DNA of 6,249 bases from a virus. Lineage: Duplodnaviria > Heunggongvirae > Uroviricota > Caudoviricetes. The notes beneath the pieces were generated by a model. That model saw nothing but the letters and a program-made list of their open reading frames with translations, made no database searches and was not told the origin of the DNA. Shown piece after piece: positions 1 to 6,249 of this stretch. The position numbers were made by a program, and so were the translations under genes. Position 1 is the first letter of the stretch. Every line of letters starts with the position of its first letter. The stretch lies in the IMG/VR virus record IMGVR_UViG_2675903336_000006. One strand, given 5' to 3'.

Positions 1-72
1 GGGAAAAATATCATCAGATGGCTGCTTAAAAAAAGAACAAATGGTAGTGTCCGCTATTGCCAGTACACCTCA
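1..72. repeat. Left arm of a perfect 72-bp inverted repeat coinciding exactly with the window start (partner 6178..6249)
   Basis: Reverse complement of 6178..6249 equals 1..72 base for base; identity ends at position 73 (t here, g in the partner). Confidence 0.9.
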
Positions 73-271
73 TCCATCACCGAAAAAAATTGGCTTTTAC
101 ACCATTGGCGATAAAAGCATTTACCTGTATGACCTACGCCGCATGGATGAAATCATGGAGGCTCTTGATAATCGTTCGTCGATGGATTGGTGTGTTGCTG
201 TTCATGATATGAATGCAGGGTTTGATGAAAAGATTTTGTTCCCCTCATCAGTTGAAAGCACTGCGGGTTAA
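41..271 (+). CDS. Hypothetical protein, 76 aa; frame is open to the window start so the true start may lie upstream
   Basis: ORF in track; TAA stop at 269-271 is followed immediately by AAGGAG (270-275) and the ATG of the next ORF, an operon-like arrangement. No recognisable family. Confidence 0.4.
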   Translation: MVVSAIASTPHPSPKKIGFYTIGDKSIYLYDLRRMDEIMEALDNRSSMDWCVAVHDMNAGFDEKILFPSSVESTAG

Positions 272-281
272 GGAGTAACAC

Positions 282-449
282 ATGACCACTATTACCAAAG
301 AACGTATTGAATTGTTCATTAAAAACCCGCTTGAAAACGGGCTTACCCGTGGTGAACAAATGGAACTGGCACGGATTGCGCTGGCATCGCTGGAAGCAGA
401 GCCGGTTGTGTTCTGGTTTGAAAAATATCAAGAAGGGGCTACGGCATGA
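282..449 (+). CDS. Hypothetical small protein, 55 aa ([55 protein letters not shown])
   Basis: Not in the ORF track (below size cut-off). Strong SD AAGGAG 270-275 with 6-nt spacer to ATG 282; stop TGA 447-449 overlaps the ATG 446-448 of the next ORF (ATGA coupling); N-terminus and an IAL-SL-AEP motif resemble the downstream ORF. Confidence 0.45.
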
Positions 450-790
450 CGACTTTTACCAGAGAGCAGTTAATAGCTCACGCAGAGGAGACTATTGAAG
501 CACAGAGACTGTGCATACCGGGCACAATCGACCATGACATCATCCGCACATATAAGATGGATATTGCTGTTCTGGAAATCGCACTGGTATCGCTGGCAGC
601 AGAGCCAGCCGGTAAATTGCATGAATACAAACCAGTGGGATATCAGCGTCTGGTCGATGAGTTAACCATGCTGGTAAAGCAGTTAACCTGGCAACTGAGG
701 AAAGCGAAGCCAGACTGCAAATTACCGGATAAGGCGATGAGTTATCTGGAGCGGAACGGACTGATAAGCGTGGAGGATATTTTACGATGA
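446..790 (+). CDS. Hypothetical protein, 114 aa, paralogous at its N-terminus to the 55-aa ORF upstream
   Basis: ORF in track; start overlaps the upstream stop (ATGA); shares MTTxT(K/R)E start and [10 protein letters not shown] vs [10 protein letters not shown] with ORF 282..449, including a near-identical ~26-nt stretch (380-405 vs 580-605). Confidence 0.5.
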
Positions 791-870
791 CCTGGCCTGA
801 AGCATTAACAACGGTAGGAATTGCGATGGCGGTGGCGCTGGTGGTGTATTCGATTTGCCGCTGGGGATAA
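787..870 (+). CDS. Possible 27-aa hydrophobic peptide ([27 protein letters not shown])
   Basis: ATG 787-789 overlaps TGA 788-790 of the upstream ORF (ATGA coupling); encodes one predicted membrane-spanning segment; too small to prove from sequence alone. Confidence 0.25.
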
Positions 871-876
871 AAACGG

Positions 877-905
877 TTTGCGGGAAAAGGAGAGTTAAGT
901 AGAAT
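877..905 (+). promoter_or_regulatory. Candidate sigma70 promoter of the hok transcript (-35 TTGCGG 878-883, -10 TAGAAT 900-905)
   Basis: TAGAAT -10 with 16-nt spacer; predicted +1 (about 910-912) places GGGUGCUUGAGGCU at the mRNA 5' end, resembling the conserved 5' leader of hok mRNAs as I recall it. Confidence 0.35.
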
Positions 906-1081
906 TGCAGCGGGTGCTTGAGGCTATCTGTCTCAGGCATGAACACCAAAAGGCAGATAGAGAAAAGCCCCAGTTAACATTACGCGTCCGGCAAGACGCT
1001 TAACATTAATCTGAGGCTCAATCTATGAACGGCAAATCTAGGTTAGCCTCTTACGTGCCGAAAGGCAAGGAGAAGCAGGCT

Positions 1082-1237
1082 ATGAAGCAGCAAAAGGCGA
1101 TGTTAATCGCCCTGATCGTCATCTGTTTAACCGTCATAGTGACGGCACTGGTAACGAGGAAAGACCTCTGCGAGGTACGAATTCGAACCGGCCAGACGGA
1201 GGTCGCTGTCTTCACAGCTTACGAACCTGAGGAGTAA
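1082..1237 (+). CDS. hokD: Hok/Gef-family type I toxin (small membrane-damaging peptide), 51 aa; an in-frame upstream ATG at 1025 gives a 70-codon mok-like frame
   Basis: Translation MKQQKAMLIALIVICLTVIVTALVTRKDLCEVRIRTGQTEVAVFTAYEPEE: N-terminal TM helix plus the RKDLCEV...TEVAVFTAYE core of Hok/Gef peptides; matches my memory of E. coli HokD (RelF). Flanked by leader and terminator structures typical of hok loci. Confidence 0.8.
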   Translation: MKQQKAMLIALIVICLTVIVTALVTRKDLCEVRIRTGQTEVAVFTAYEPEE

Positions 1238-1307
1238 GAGACCAGGCGGGGGAGAAATCCCTCGCCACCTCTGATGGGTCAGGCATCCTCAATGCACCCA
1301 CACTTAA

Positions 1308-1332
1308 CCCGCTTCGGCGGGTTTTTGTTTTT
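1308..1332 (+). terminator. Rho-independent terminator ending the hok transcript
   Basis: CCCGC(1308-1312)-TTCG-GCGGG(1317-1321) stem-loop followed by TTTTTGTTTTT. Confidence 0.6.
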
Positions 1333-1345
1333 ATTTTCAACGCGT

Positions 1346-1375
1346 TTGAAGTTTTAGATGGTGCCGGAATAGAAT
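1346..1375 (+). promoter_or_regulatory. Candidate sigma70 promoter (-35 TTGAAG 1346-1351, -10 TAGAAT 1370-1375, 18-nt spacer)
   Basis: Hexamers close to consensus just downstream of the hok terminator and ~80 nt upstream of the next ORF. Confidence 0.3.
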
Positions 1376-1457
1376 CAAAAATACTTAAGTAGCGCGCAGG
1401 GAGAAGAGGGATGGACCCCGAACAGGGGAGTGCTATTTATCTGGAAGGATTCTGTTG

Positions 1458-1739
1458 ATGAAAATCGAAGAATTACGTGAAATTTTTAGTGAAGATGGCC
1501 TCTATACTGTGCGCGTTGAGAATGGCGCTATTGTCAGCCACTGCCTTCCAGACTACACAATTCTGATAATTCAGCCGTCTTTGCCAGCAGGCACGGGCGG
1601 CGCTCTCACGCATTTAAATCTGATTGGTACCAGCATCCCCCATGCACTGAAGAACAGGCCGAATGGCTCATTCAGTGTTACCGCAGGCGCGGATGCGAGG
1701 TTAAAAAAGCCCTTAGCCTCGACTACCGTCACTGGATAA
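1458..1739 (+). CDS. Hypothetical small protein (93 aa from ATG 1458); sits where rem lies in Qin-type prophages
   Basis: ORF in track (TTG 1455 / ATG 1458); SD-like GGAAGGA 1444-1450 with 7-nt spacer. C-terminal half is low-complexity, so the true extent is uncertain. Not recognised by sequence. Confidence 0.35.
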   Translation: MKIEELREIFSEDGLYTVRVENGAIVSHCLPDYTILIIQPSLPAGTGGALTHLNLIGTSIPHALKNRPNGSFSVTAGADARLKKPLASTTVTG

Positions 1740-1814
1740 TCTCCGTCAGGCTCCCTTACTCCGAACGGCCAACGCGTCCGTCCCGCACATTCCAGCAACG
1801 GATCTGGAGGTAAT

Positions 1815-2873
1815 GTGCGGGTATTACTTCGACCTGTTCTGGTACCGGAACTCGGTCTGGTTATCGTTAAGCCAGGCCGTGAATCAATGTCAGCATTCCA
1901 TAACGGCAGAATACTGGTGGAGCCGGAACCAAAAAGCATGCGTAATCTGCCGTCCGGGGTCGTTCCTGCCGCTCGCCAGCCGCTGGTGGAAGACAAAACA
2001 TTGCTGCCGTTTTTCAGTAACGCACGGGTGATTCGTGCTGCTGGTGGTGCTGGTGCATTGTCTGACTGGCTGTTGCGCCATATTAAATCCTGCCAGTGGC
2101 CACACGGCGATTATCATCACAGCGAAACCGTCATTCACCGTTATGGTACCGGCGCAATGGTGTTGTGCTGGCACTGCGACAACCAGCTGCGTGACCAGAC
2201 ATCCGAATCACTCGAGCAACTTGCTCATCAAAACCTGTCAGCATGGATGATTGACGTCATCGGTCACGCAATAAGCGGTACGCAGGAGCGTGAATTATCT
2301 CTGGCTGAATTATCCTGGTGGGCGGTCCGCAATCAGGTGGCGGACGCGCTACCGGAAGCGGTATTACGTCGTTCGCTGGGGTTGCGTGCGGAAAAAATTC
2401 GCTCTGTGTACAGTGAAAGCGACATCATACCGGGAGAGCAGACAGCCACCAGCATACTGAAGCAGCGCACAAAAAATATTGCGTTACTGCCTCACGTCCA
2501 CCAGCAACAGAACCCACCACAGGAAAAGACGGTGGTCAGCATTGCCGTTGATCCGGAGTCACCGGCTCAGTATCTCCAGCGCCAGAAATCACAACGGGAA
2601 GAGATGCCTGTATACACGCGCTGGGTAAAAACGCAGAAATGCATGACGTGTGGCAATCAGGCAGATGATCCGCATCACATCATTGGTCATGGACTGGGAG
2701 GGATGGGAACAAAGGCTGATGATTTGTTTGTTATTCCGTTATGCCGTAAATGCCGTAACGAACTACATGCCGGAGTAAAAGATTTTGAAGAGAAACACGG
2801 CAGTCAGCTGTTGTTGCTGATTCGTTTTTTAATGCACGCGAGAAATTCGGGTGTTCTGAAGTGGAAAGCATAA
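1815..2873 (+). CDS. DUF968/YdfU-like prophage protein with C-terminal HNH-like Cys/His motif; start uncertain (GTG 1815 after GGAGG 1806-1810, or in-frame ATG 1887 or 1938)
   Basis: Long ORF immediately upstream of and abutting rusA (TAA 2871-2873, ATG 2874); C-terminus CMTCGNQADDPHHIIGHG...LCRKCRNELH = CxxC..HH..CxxC..H. Family assignment is from context and memory of the YdfU position next to Q in the Qin prophage. Confidence 0.65.
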   Translation: MRVLLRPVLVPELGLVIVKPGRESMSAFHNGRILVEPEPKSMRNLPSGVVPAARQPLVEDKTLLPFFSNARVIRAAGGAGALSDWLLRHIKSCQWPHGDYHHSETVIHRYGTGAMVLCWHCDNQLRDQTSESLEQLAHQNLSAWMIDVIGHAISGTQERELSLAELSWWAVRNQVADALPEAVLRRSLGLRAEKIRSVYSESDIIPGEQTATSILKQRTKNIALLPHVHQQQNPPQEKTVVSIAVDPESPAQYLQRQKSQREEMPVYTRWVKTQKCMTCGNQADDPHHIIGHGLGGMGTKADDLFVIPLCRKCRNELHAGVKDFEEKHGSQLLLLIRFLMHARNSGVLKWKA

Positions 2874-3254
2874 ATGACCGAGCGCATAGAATTTGTTTTA
2901 CCTTACCCGCCGACGGTGAACACTTACTGGCGTCGTCGTGGCAGCACATATTTTGTATCAAAAGCCGGGGAGCGTTATCGCCGGGCAGTGGCGCTTATTG
3001 TTCGCCAGCAGCGGCTGAAATTAAGCCTGTCCGGAAGGTTGGCAATAAAAATTATTGCAGAACCACCGGATAAGCGCCGCCGTGACCTGGACAATATTCT
3101 GAAAGCGCCGCTGGATGCGCTGACGCATGCGGGGTTGCTAATGGACGATGAGCAGTTTGATGAAATCAATATCGTTCGTGCTCAGCCAGTATCTGGTGGA
3201 CGTCTGGGGGTGAAGATTTATCCCATAATGCTTGAAGGGCAGGTCAAAAAATGA
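2874..3254 (+). CDS. rusA: RusA-family Holliday junction resolvase
   Basis: 126 aa; LPYPPTVNTYWRRRG, PDKRRRDLDNILKAPLDALTHAGLLMDDEQ and GGRL closely parallel E. coli RusA (LPWPPSNNRYY..., [30 protein letters not shown], GGRL) as I recall it; SD GGAAAG upstream; stop overlaps the Q start. Confidence 0.85.
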   Translation: MTERIEFVLPYPPTVNTYWRRRGSTYFVSKAGERYRRAVALIVRQQRLKLSLSGRLAIKIIAEPPDKRRRDLDNILKAPLDALTHAGLLMDDEQFDEINIVRAQPVSGGRLGVKIYPIMLEGQVKK

Positions 3255-4072
3255 AACTGGAAGATTTACCGAAATACTACTCCCCAAAATCCCCCGGCCT
3301 GACTGATGCATCGGCCTCAACGTCGAAAGATGCGCTGAGTATCACTGATGTGATGGCCGCGCAGGGCATGACACAGAATCGGGCTGAGATGGGGGTTTCT
3401 GCGTTCCTTGGGAAAATGGGCATTAGTATGAATGACAGAGAGCGGGCAACAGAATTGCTGACAGAATATGCACTCAGTCGGTGTGATCGCGTGGCGGCGT
3501 TAAGAAAACTCCCGGCAGAAATAAAACCGGCAGTGATGCGTATTATGGCTTCGTATGCGTTTGAAGATTATGCCCGTAGCGCGGCGAGCAAAAAACAGTG
3601 CCCCTGCTGTCACGGAAAAAAATTTATTGAAAGCGAGGTTTTTACAAACAAGATCCAGTATCCGGATGGTAAGCCGCCGGTATGGGCAAAGTGTACGAAA
3701 GGTGTGTATCCGTCTTACTGGGAAGAATGGAAAAAAGTCAGGGAGGTGGTAAAAGTTGCCTGTCCGGAGTGTGGCGGAAAGGGTGAGGTTTCCACCGCCT
3801 GTAAGGATTGCCGTGGGCGTGGTGTCGCCATTCATCGTGAAGAGTCGGTAAAACGTGGTATGCCTGTTATCAGAGACTGCCAGCGTTGTGGTGGTCGTGG
3901 CTATGAAAGACTACCATCAACGGAGGCATTTAATGCTATATGCGAGGTGACAAACCAGATAACACGCGCGTCATGGGAAAAAACAGTTAAGAAATTTTAT
4001 GATGCGCTGGTGACCCGGTTTGATATTGAAGAAGCATGGGCTGAGCGGCAGTTAAAAAAGGTAACTAGGTAA
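3251..4072 (+). CDS. Q: Lambda-family late-gene antiterminator Q, 273 aa, with an extra Cys-rich insertion
   Basis: Blocks matching my memory of lambda Q: YSPKSPGLTDASASTSKDALSITDVMAAQGM vs HSPKSPMMSDSPRATASDSLSGTDVMAAMGM; ASYAFEDYARSAAS vs ATFAYADYCRSAAT; CKDCRGRG / CQRCGGRGYERLP vs CRDCHGTG / CGRCKGVGYSRMP; C-terminal TVKKFYDALV...VTR vs TVKPLYDALV...VTR. Followed at once by a pR'-like promoter. Confidence 0.8.
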   Translation: MKLEDLPKYYSPKSPGLTDASASTSKDALSITDVMAAQGMTQNRAEMGVSAFLGKMGISMNDRERATELLTEYALSRCDRVAALRKLPAEIKPAVMRIMASYAFEDYARSAASKKQCPCCHGKKFIESEVFTNKIQYPDGKPPVWAKCTKGVYPSYWEEWKKVREVVKVACPECGGKGEVSTACKDCRGRGVAIHREESVKRGMPVIRDCQRCGGRGYERLPSTEAFNAICEVTNQITRASWEKTVKKFYDALVTRFDIEEAWAERQLKKVTR

Positions 4073-4077
4073 CAAGG

Positions 4078-4120
4078 TTGATTTTTCCGGAATCTGTGGT
4101 AAATTCGTCATAACGATGGG
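4078..4120 (+). promoter_or_regulatory. Late promoter pR' with qut-type pause element (-35 TTGATT 4078-4083, extended -10 TGgTAAATT 4097-4105, AACGATGGG 4112-4120)
   Basis: Six nt after Q stop; -10 TAAATT identical to lambda pR'; AACGATGGG sits 6 nt after the -10 exactly as in lambda pR' (TAAATT-TGACTC-AACGATGGG), where AACGAT is the sigma-dependent pause signal. Confidence 0.6.
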
Positions 4121-4154
4121 CGTTTTATGCCTGACGTTAGAAGAGTTTCTACAA

Positions 4155-4176
4155 CCCGCCGCCGAGCGGGTTTTTT
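4155..4176 (+). terminator. tR'-like rho-independent terminator downstream of pR'
   Basis: CCCGC(4155-4159)-CGCCGA-GCGGG(4166-4170) followed by TTTTTT(4171-4176); about 65 nt from the predicted +1. Confidence 0.55.
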
Positions 4177-4296
4177 ATGACTGAAATCGCGTCAGTACAG
4201 TAAACGCGCTGGTGGCGGTGAATACCTGTCTTTCAGCTTGCTGGCTTTTTCGACAAGAGTTATTGGTGTGTCACGTTAACCGGAAAAGGAAAAGAC

Positions 4297-4494
4297 ATGC
4301 TAAAACAGCAGGATATGACAGAAACCGCCAGAGTGGTGTTTAATGAATTAAGCGTTACCGAACCGGCGACAGTCGGGGAGATAGCGCAGAATACTTACCT
4401 TTCACGCGAACGCTGCCAGTTAATACTGACCCAGCTGGTTATGGCGGGTCTGGCAGACTATCAGTTCGGTTGTTACAGACGCCTTCCGCAGTGA
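4297..4494 (+). CDS. Small hypothetical protein, 65 aa, with helix-turn-helix-like segment (ATVGEIAQNTYLSRERCQLILTQLVMAGL)
   Basis: ORF in track; purine-rich SD-like AAAAGGAAAAG before ATG; stop codon sits in the loop of a terminator hairpin. First ORF downstream of tR'. Confidence 0.45.
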   Translation: MLKQQDMTETARVVFNELSVTEPATVGEIAQNTYLSRERCQLILTQLVMAGLADYQFGCYRRLPQ

Positions 4495-4504
4495 AGGCTT
4501 TTTT
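4481..4504 (+). terminator. Rho-independent terminator overlapping the stop of ORF 4297..4494
   Basis: GCCTTC(4481-4486)-CGCAGT-GAAGGC(4493-4498) followed by TTTTTT; stop TGA 4492-4494 lies in the loop. Confidence 0.55.
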
Positions 4505-4522
4505 ATTTGTGGTAAATGGGCG

Positions 4523-4551
4523 GCTGGTGGGTGTTAGGGGCACCCACCAGC
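4523..4551. repeat. Perfect 11-bp inverted repeat (hairpin) whose arms are Chi and complement-Chi
   Basis: GCTGGTGGGTG (4523-4533), 7-nt loop TTAGGGG, CACCCACCAGC (4541-4551); no U-run follows, so not a classic terminator. Confidence 0.6.
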
Positions 4552-4626
4552 CATCTGCTCATGCGTTGGGTTCACAAGCAAACCTCAGGCCCACTGCTTT
4601 GCGCAAAAGCAGAATGAGCCTATCAG

Positions 4627-4891
4627 NNNNNNNNNNNNNNNNNNNNNNNNNNNNNNNNNNNNNNNNNNNNNNNNNNNNNNNNNNNNNNNNNNNNNNNNNN
4701 NNNNNNNNNNNNNNNNNNNNNNNNNNNNNNNNNNNNNNNNNNNNNNNNNNNNNNNNNNNNNNNNNNNNNNNNNNNNNNNNNNNNNNNNNNNNNNNNNNNN
4801 NNNNNNNNNNNNNNNNNNNNNNNNNNNNNNNNNNNNNNNNNNNNNNNNNNNNNNNNNNNNNNNNNNNNNNNNNNNNNNNNNNNNNNNNNNN
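4627..4891. other. Run of 265 N (masked or unsequenced gap)
   Basis: Direct observation; all ORFs crossing it in the track are artefacts of translating N as X. Confidence 0.99.
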
Positions 4892-4892
4892 A

Positions 4893-5420
4893 AAACAGAT
4901 TGCAGATGCCACAGGAAAGAAAAACATGGTGTCGCACTGGTTCAGTGCCGGTCAGTGGCAGTTGCCGAATGAAAGCGATTATCTGAAATTACAGGCGCTG
5001 TTTGCCCGGGTGGCAGAAGAGAAGCATCGGCGTGGTGAACTGGAAAAGCTCCACCACCAGCTGGTGGATACGTATACCTCACTGAACCGGCAGTATGCGG
5101 AGCTGCTGAGTGAATATAAACATCTGCGGCGGTATTTTGGCGTGACGGTGCAGGTGCCGTATACCGATGTGTGGACGCATAAACCGGTGCAGTTCTATCC
5201 CGGGAAACATCCGTGCGAAAAACCGGCAGAAATGCTGCAGCAGATAATCAGCGCTAGCAGTCGTCCGGGTGACCTGATTGCAGATTTTTTCATGGGGTTG
5301 GGTTCGACAGTGAAAGCGGCACTGGCGCTCGGGCGTCGTGCAATTGGCGTTGAGCTGGAGACTGAACGTTTTGAGCAGACGGTTCGGGAAGTACAGGATT
5401 TAGTCAGCCAGAACGGATGA
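4893..5420 (+). CDS. Beta-class N6-adenine/N4-cytosine DNA methyltransferase, C-terminal portion (5' end lost in the N gap; internal ATG 4926 with SD AGGA 4913-4916 is an alternative start)
   Basis: HPCEKPAEMLQQIISASSRPGDLIADFFMGLGSTVKAALALGRRAIGVELE matches the HPxxKP...D-FxGSGTT...GR-xIGIE C-terminal signature of N6_N4 MTases (CcrM-like), from memory. The catalytic DPPY motif is not in the visible part. Confidence 0.7.
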   Translation, partial: KQIADATGKKNMVSHWFSAGQWQLPNESDYLKLQALFARVAEEKHRRGELEKLHHQLVDTYTSLNRQYAELLSEYKHLRRYFGVTVQVPYTDVWTHKPVQFYPGKHPCEKPAEMLQQIISASSRPGDLIADFFMGLGSTVKAALALGRRAIGVELETERFEQTVREVQDLVSQNG

Positions 5421-5460
5421 TATTGAAGAATTAATTACGCGTCGTTATTATGCGGCTCCC

Positions 5461-5536
5461 GGCCCTTTAGCTCAGTGGTGAGAGCGAGCGACTCATAATC
5501 GCCAGGTCGCTGGTTCAAATCCAGCAAGGGCCACCA
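5461..5536 (+). tRNA. tRNA with CAU anticodon, most like tRNA-Ile2 (lysidine-modified; ileX/ileZ-like)
   Basis: 76 nt folds as cloverleaf: acceptor GGCCCTT/AAGGGCC, D-stem GCTC/GAGC, anticodon loop CTCATAA, T-arm GCTGG-TTCAAAT-CCAGC, discriminator A, encoded CCA; overall close to E. coli ileX as I recall it. Confidence 0.85.
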
Positions 5537-5543
5537 TCACATA

Positions 5544-5577
5544 CCGCCATTAGCTCATCAGGAAAGAGCGCCAGCCT
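5544..5577 (+). tRNA. Probable 5' part of a second tRNA, cut by the N gap
   Basis: 7 nt after the first tRNA: TA-GCTC-(D-loop)-GAGC-G-CCAGC fits positions 8-31 of a tRNA; rest masked, so identity cannot be determined. Confidence 0.3.
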
Positions 5578-5845
5578 NNNNNNNNNNNNNNNNNNNNNNN
5601 NNNNNNNNNNNNNNNNNNNNNNNNNNNNNNNNNNNNNNNNNNNNNNNNNNNNNNNNNNNNNNNNNNNNNNNNNNNNNNNNNNNNNNNNNNNNNNNNNNNN
5701 NNNNNNNNNNNNNNNNNNNNNNNNNNNNNNNNNNNNNNNNNNNNNNNNNNNNNNNNNNNNNNNNNNNNNNNNNNNNNNNNNNNNNNNNNNNNNNNNNNNN
5801 NNNNNNNNNNNNNNNNNNNNNNNNNNNNNNNNNNNNNNNNNNNNN
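5578..5845. other. Run of 268 N (masked or unsequenced gap)
   Basis: Direct observation. Confidence 0.99.
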
Positions 5846-5970
5846 GAATCCCCCTGTGCGGAGGGGCAATCAGCGAGTAGGTATATGGGATAATCGCGGA
5901 TTCAGGTGCTGGTACTGAATTCACCGGGAGGCACCCGGCATCATGCAATGGCACATAGCGCCACTCTCCA

Positions 5971-5994
5971 GCCCTCTCCGGAGGGGCTTTTCTG
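5971..5994 (+). terminator. Possible rho-independent terminator
   Basis: GC-rich imperfect hairpin GCCCTC-TCCG-GAGGGGC (one bulged G) followed by TTTTCTG; T-run on + strand only. Confidence 0.3.
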
Positions 5995-6177
5995 TGCCGG
6001 ATACATCACAGTTTCTGGAACCTTAGGTACTACAGTATCAGTCAGGGTGCTATATTTTCAGATGTGATGAAAGCCTGTCAGCAGGCAGGGCGTATCGGAA
6101 ATGACCCAGTAGAGAAAACGTTGACTCAGATACCGGTGCTGAGTTACCGGGAAACCGGCATCACATGACCGCTATCC

Positions 6178-6249
6178 TGAGGTGTACTGGCAATAGCGGA
6201 CACTACCATTTGTTCTTTTTTTAAGCAGCCATCTGATGATATTTTTCCC
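6178..6249. repeat. Right arm of the perfect 72-bp terminal inverted repeat (partner 1..72)
   Basis: Exact reverse complement of 1..72; on the minus strand it reproduces the start region and first 10 codons of ORF 41..271, then diverges into a 21-codon frame. Confidence 0.9.

Follow-up and report, generated by a model that had tools for sequence, protein, structure and literature searches.

The perfect inverted repeat bounding a lambdoid prophage fragment consists of IS600 ends

Why should a stretch of viral DNA begin and end with the same 72 bases, read once on each strand? The question arises for the IMG/VR record IMGVR_UViG_2675903336_000006, a sequence of 6,249 nucleotides assigned to the Caudoviricetes that was analyzed in its entirety and is referred to here as the window. 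A repeat search confirmed what a first-pass annotation of the bare sequence had described, i.e., an inverted repeat of 72 nt whose arms (positions 1 to 72 and 6178 to 6249) are 100% complementary, lie 6105 nt apart and are flush with the window ends; the computed chance expectation for such a pair of arms in this much sequence is about 7e-37. Three alternatives had been proposed, namely, a fold-back chimera, a contig broken at a repeat, and a real inverted duplication, of which the latter two proved to be true together, whereas the first did not hold. The window is almost certainly the whole scaffold of a short-read draft assembly and represents a decayed lambdoid prophage segment located between two inverted, full-length copies of the insertion sequence (IS) IS600. 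The repeat is real, its cause is ordinary, and the biology behind it is already known.

The arms and their counterparts in finished chromosomes

The 72-mer matches many Escherichia coli records annotated as IS3-like element IS600 family transposase with 100% identity over 72 of 72 positions, and matches were obtained in 2922 E. coli records, at up to 43 places per genome. In one matched copy, the transposase coding sequence (CDS) ends at arm position 29, corresponding to a TAA stop at window positions 27 to 29, and beyond this stop the arm reaches the IS600 terminus (...ACACCTCA). The element measures 1264 bp in complete genomes, which lies within the range of about 1.2 to 1.3 kb, and has imperfect TGAGGT.../...ACCTCA ends that conform to the TG...CA pattern; it starts with TGAGGTAGCCTG... 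and finishes with ...CAGTACACCTCA, and these termini pair imperfectly over about 27 to 30 nt (TGAGGTAGCC... / ...GTACACCTCA). The two open reading frames (ORFs) of an IS3-family element are also present, i.e., a 100-amino-acid (aa) HTH_Tnp_1 protein (orfA) and a 272-aa rve protein (orfB), or alternatively a fused frameshift product of 385 aa, and in a profile search they score as IS3 family transposase NF033516 with 330 bits (cut-off, 160). A neighboring IS3-family copy carries the RefSeq note "programmed frameshift." Each arm of the window is thus the 72-bp outer tip of the IS600 right end, and the true arms are 1264 bp long.

The left arm is the tail of an IS600 copy in plus orientation located to the left of the window, equivalent to the end of the element at positions 8769 to 10032 in the finished chromosome L004, where the right-hand copy is likewise complete and inverted (16398 to 17661). 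Both transposase genes read toward the segment, i.e., the right end of each copy faces inward. In L004, these copies form an inverted repeat of 1264 nt with 100% complementarity and 6365 nt between the arms. The real inverted duplication around the module that the first-pass annotation had considered is thereby borne out by complete chromosomes, although its dimensions (a module of 6.1 kb with arms of 72 bp) have to be corrected to 6.4 kb and 1264 bp, and the identity of IS600 had been missed. A circular molecule containing a 144-bp palindrome, which had also been contemplated, does not apply to a chromosomal segment.

The first-pass annotation had further placed the start of the gene at positions 41 to 271 within the repeat and concluded that the right end harbors a second, truncated copy of this gene start. 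The ATG does lie in the left arm, together with 32 nt (10 2/3 codons) of the ORF. The arm, however, is the end of IS600, and no gene start has been duplicated: IS600 contributes the ATG and the first 10 codons, which continue in frame into a phage gene. In uninterrupted prophages, the native start of the gene encoding WP_000224233 is situated 65 nt upstream of the position corresponding to window base 73 (CDS 2436 to 2699 in L001), so that what looks like a gene start in the arm is a piece of the IS that is in frame by coincidence. The native protein accordingly begins with MATLTKKERAWLNELQEVLDRCPSPKK... and the product of the hybrid ORF with MVVSAIASTPHPSPKK....

A comparison of the window with 5426 complete E. 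coli genomes, a collection that does not comprise Shigella, revealed interior homology from base 73 to base 6178 or 6179 (6177 plus one or two chance bases), and these bounds identify both junctions as IS/target junctions. None of the 5426 genomes carries either of the two IS/segment junctions. The exact 76-aa product of the hybrid ORF that starts in the arm was then used as a signature of the left junction and is recorded in 795 blocks of an assembly collection, 83 of them with contigs of >1 Mb and 325 with a longest contig of 5 to 10 kb. From these 795 blocks, 25 contigs were read, and ten complete or near-complete chromosomes were displayed. Eight of the ten show the same order, i.e., IS600 transposase (plus strand), hybrid ORF, hok, DUF968, RusA, Q, methylase, IS600 transposase (minus strand), DUF1737/SASA gene, and holin. 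The right flank with the DUF1737/SASA gene and the holin is the same in all genomes with both IS600 copies, and only the DNA beyond the left copy varies. The two flanking copies are 99.8 to 100% identical to each other in complete genomes.

The entire window apart from its runs of N is 100% identical to five chromosomes (L004, L006, L008, L009, and L011). Two chromosomes could be identified from the literature as Shigella sonnei, namely, CP022457 (strain 2015C-3566) and CP060117 (strain UKMCC1015), and the sequence identity suggests that the source strain of the window was most likely S. sonnei as well. IS600 is one of five ISs that have expanded in all Shigella species, and S. sonnei 53G harbors 52 copies, with a population median of 39 (PMC7373316, S1 Table).

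The finished chromosomes also bear on the possibility that a fold-back or strand switch during library preparation or assembly generated a spurious inverted copy of one window end. Such a chimera would explain only why the repeat is flush with the window, whereas both junctions recur with 100% identity in several independently finished chromosomes and the right one exhibits a proper 3-bp target-site duplication; an artificial origin of the repeat is thereby refuted. The coordinates of the window features are compiled in Table 1.

Table 1. Features of the 6,249-nt window
Feature	Position	Strand	Remarks
IS600 right end, last 72 bp (IS3 family)	1..72	+	End of orfB, TAA at 27-29, imperfect terminal inverted repeat at about 43-72
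Hybrid ORF	41..271	+	First 32 nt from IS600; rest is the 3' part of the 87-aa phage gene WP_000224233
TCC adjoining left IS600, target triplet of the original insertion	73..75	+	Partner absent across the IS, TTT there
Defective lambdoid prophage segment between the IS600 copies	73..6177	+	Collinear with uninterrupted prophages
hok/sok-type type I toxin-antitoxin module, complete	912..1237	+	Rfam sok at 912-1087, 112 bits; Hok-family ORF at 1025/1082-1237
Scaffold gap, 265 N	4627..4891		Stands for 548 real bases (methylase upstream region and 5' part); window 4626/4892 = L004 14586/15135
tRNA, anticodon CAT	5461..5536	+	ARAGORN: tRNA-Met; RefSeq and phage 24B record: tRNA-Ile (ileZ, AUA)
Scaffold gap, 268 N	5578..5845		Replaces 245 real bases: the greater part of tRNA-Arg tcg, the complete tRNA-Arg tct gene, and the spacer that follows
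Inner TCC of the right IS600 target-site duplication	6175..6177	+	Outer TCC just past the IS in complete genomes
IS600 right end, last 72 bp, second inverted copy	6178..6249	-	L004 16398-16469; rest beyond the right end of the window

Why the repeat stops after 72 bases

If the arms of the chromosomal repeat are 1264 bp long, their length in the window calls for an explanation of its own. In the complete genomes, the two flanking IS600 copies are either identical throughout, as in L004, or show their first difference 117, 285, or 1139 nt from the tip, never at position 73. The copies thus do not diverge at this base, and position 72 marks no biological boundary. Each genome contains tens of near-identical IS600 copies, through which an assembler could not pass; the assembler would have collapsed the approximately 40 to 50 copies into a single node, and the scaffold would have stopped about k - 1 bases into this node at both sides. 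Its ends are reverse complementary because both neighbors present the same end of the same element.

Two unrelated MEGAHIT contigs assembled with k = 127 (L041 and L054), which were obtained in a scan for IS tips, terminate in the same IS600 end, of which they retain 126 and 127 nt, and are direct evidence that contigs from de Bruijn assembly extend about k bases into the repeat. By analogy, the source assembly would have used a k of about 73, the 72 bases corresponding approximately to k - 1 of a de Bruijn assembler. The IS600-bearing contigs L038, L041, and L054 are filed as Streptomyces sp. UG1 (coverage, 1.3), a Bacteroidetes metagenome-assembled genome (MAG), and a Proteobacteria MAG, respectively, and probably represent contamination or misbinned enterobacterial contigs.

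The two runs of N also bear on the nature of the sequence. Masking by the database was considered as their cause and rejected, since their lengths differ from those of the real sequence; the wrong lengths in turn identify the window as three contigs of a short-read draft that were joined into a scaffold by paired ends. The segment measures 6.1 kb here and 6.4 kb in the genome because both gaps were mis-sized, and the two affected regions are likely repeated in other prophages of the same genome. With mis-sized scaffold gaps in its interior and IS600 tips at its ends, the window matches the contig broken at a repeat that had been among the initial proposals.

Three points weigh against this reading of the window as a draft scaffold ending in collapsed IS600 copies. 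The equation of 72 with k - 1 is an inference. Moreover, a scan of one genome collection with the terminal 30-mer of the arm did not recover the source contig; the only hits were S. flexneri SFBU1023, "E. coli" ECMA0423, and three stray contigs. Finally, the window alone is, strictly speaking, also compatible with a strain that retains only 72-bp remnants of the IS at both sites.

Origin of the two IS600 copies

The arrangement in the finished genomes arose when IS600 inserted twice into a lambdoid prophage near ompW and one of the copies later took part in a rearrangement, resulting in the 1264-bp inverted pair around the segment. The right-hand copy, which is located between the tRNA block and a nanS-like gene (window junction 6177/6178), is the simpler case. 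Its junctions read gctaTCC - IS600 - TCCttccagg, whereas the uninterrupted sequence is GCTATCCTTCCAGG, in which the site is single copy. At this site, genomes with the IS are longer by 1267 bp (L004 compared with L005), i.e., 1264 bp plus 3 bp. A plain insertion event that duplicated the 3-bp TCC target (TCC/TCC), as is typical of IS3-family elements, accounts for the right IS600. In Stx phages, this intergenic zone harbors stx, and the IS lies about 0.36 to 0.4 kb downstream of the position that is occupied by stx in phage 24B (L084, 1844 to 2788). From two of the ten chromosomes displayed, L005 and L010, this copy is missing at the position of window base 6178, although the left IS600 and the segment are present. 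Both carry another IS600 on the minus strand 3.46 kb further to the right (position 20108 onward), past the holin region, whose right end also points inward and which thereby creates a 10-kb version of the same bracket.

An inverted IS pair around a segment of 6.4 kb corresponds to the geometry of Tn5 and Tn10, and the whole unit might accordingly have arrived at its current location as a composite transposon. The target sites argue for separate events, since the outer flanks (TTT on the left and TCC on the right) do not form a common duplication and the right copy possesses its own TCC/TCC and hence inserted alone. The strains with the left IS600 and the segment but without the right copy point in the same direction, as does the native context of the block, which is, like the DNA past the right IS600, collinear with ordinary prophages. 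A unit of IS600, segment, and IS600 was not encountered at unrelated sites among the genomes displayed, and the right flank is the same in all two-copy genomes. In addition, both outer ends of such a transposon would be left ends, an unusual substrate for the IS3 family. Joint transposition of the two copies with the segment is therefore extremely unlikely.

The left-hand copy has a more complex history. It is flanked by TCC on the inner and TTT on the outer side and lacks a target duplication. The adjacent 2.2 kb on its left are an inverted piece of the same prophage, which also contains an IS1; positions 6543 to 7116 of L004, for example, are the reverse complement of positions 1930 to 2503 of L001. 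The outer left flank changes at the tip of the IS in L012 and further out in L006 and L009, and this variation indicates that the left IS600 has been a recombination site. Its missing duplication is explained by the later rearrangement.

The remainder of the interrupted gene could also be located. Its 5' 65 nt plus the TCC lie in inverted orientation 3.5 kb to the left (L004, 6224 to 8768), where they directly abut the 3' part of a tyrosine integrase gene beside ompW and form with it a fusion ORF of 128 aa (L008, 6644 to 7030, minus strand). No IS600 is present at this joint, and simple models of IS-IS recombination do not explain it. Recombination between two inverted IS600 copies was considered as the history of the left flank and fits the inverted 2.2-kb piece, but the second IS600 that it predicts is absent; intramolecular transposition of an IS dimer offers the same fit and likewise fails because the predicted second IS600 beside the displaced 5' fragment is missing.

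Recombination at the left copy also raises the question of whether the inverted pair serves as a switch that changes the orientation of the 6.4-kb segment. In favor of such a role, RecA-dependent inversion works well on inverted repeats of this kind (1264 bp with 99.8 to 100% identity). The left IS600 has clearly undergone recombination, as seen from its lack of a target duplication and its deviating outer flank in L012, and IS-associated inversions have been documented in Shigella (PMC7373316, PMC7819885). However, the orientation of the segment with respect to the right flank does not differ among the eight displayed genomes with both copies, and the TCC/TCC of the right copy is intact, whereas an inversion between the copies would break such a duplication. 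A site-specific invertase gene is found neither in the segment nor beside it. Systems of the Hin/Gin/Cin type combine short recombination sites with a serine invertase; here, the arms are IS termini, and the window contains no invertase ORF. Homologous recombination, as envisaged in the first-pass annotation, could physically invert the segment, but none of the 25 contigs read shows such an inversion, and a function of the pair as a recombination switch appears very improbable. The same low degree of confidence applies to the broader notion that the inverted IS600 copies turn the block of hok/sok, RusA, Q, methylase, and tRNAs into an occasionally mobile or invertible cassette, be it as a composite element or by flipping. 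If this unlikely scenario were true, a recombination-driven flip could uncouple Q and the tRNAs from the lysis genes and have some effect on prophage silencing in S. sonnei.

The prophage segment and its relatives

The prophage remnant between the two IS600 insertions comprises small ORFs, hok/sok, a rem fusion, DUF968/HNH, RusA, antiterminator Q, an N6/N4 DNA methylase, tRNAs, and an STnc100-like region, and ompW is located near the prophage in complete genomes. The prophage is probably dead, given that its early region is missing or inverted and that the lysis genes have been cut off from Q and the tRNAs by an IS. Downstream of the tRNAs, an Rfam match to the small RNA STnc100 (5817 to 5999, 70 bits) extends with its 5' part into the second run of N, where it does not represent real sequence. 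In comparison to L005 and L010, the window lacks 250 bp between positions 1545 and 1546 (L005, 11506 to 11755), a loss that fuses rem to the next ORF and results in an ORF of 94 aa (1455 to 1739). There is no obvious direct repeat at the ends of this deletion. In the ten genomes, it is found together with the right-hand IS600 and may serve as a lineage marker; the right-hand insertion and the linked deletion vary between strains, and both could be used for this purpose.

The practical lesson of the window is one of caution. Perfect inverted repeats at the ends of draft contigs usually represent k-mer-sized tips of an insertion sequence that was collapsed in the assembly, and an ORF that begins inside such a tip is a fusion and not a gene start. 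With respect to biology, the locus is a further example of IS600 breaking up and rearranging a prophage of S. sonnei, a process that is well documented.

Several known systems provide a framework for the locus. Like Tn5 and Tn10, it consists of two inverted copies of one IS around passenger genes; unlike in these transposons, the outer flanks share no duplication, one arm was acquired separately and more recently and is missing in some strains, and the block resides in its native prophage. The segment also resembles lambdoid prophages at the ompW locus (PPompW of enterohemorrhagic E. coli) and the late-regulatory modules of Shiga toxin (Stx) phages, with which it shares the order hok, rem, ydfU/DUF968, rusA, Q, methylase, and tRNAs at 90 to 92% identity. 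In contrast to PPompW, the copy analyzed here is broken twice by IS600 and also by IS1, partly inverted, and devoid of the early region. The defective Stx prophage of S. dysenteriae type 1 is comparable in that IS600 has entered the late-regulatory region of a decayed lambdoid prophage, with the Q/tRNA block on one side and the nanS-like and lysis genes on the other; IS600 is located just upstream of stx in S. dysenteriae type 1, and IS-linked inversions have been described in S. dysenteriae (PMC7819885). Unlike its S. dysenteriae counterpart, the present locus lacks stx genes. Throughout, the locus matches IS600 of Shigella itself, whose expansion to tens of copies, gene disruptions, associated rearrangements, and difficulties for short-read sequencing have been reported (PMC7373316). 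The identity of the right end, the length of 1264 bp, the ORFs, and the 3-bp duplication all agree in substance with this element and with the contig breaks that it causes, the only peculiarity of the window being that both neighboring copies turn the same end toward the segment.

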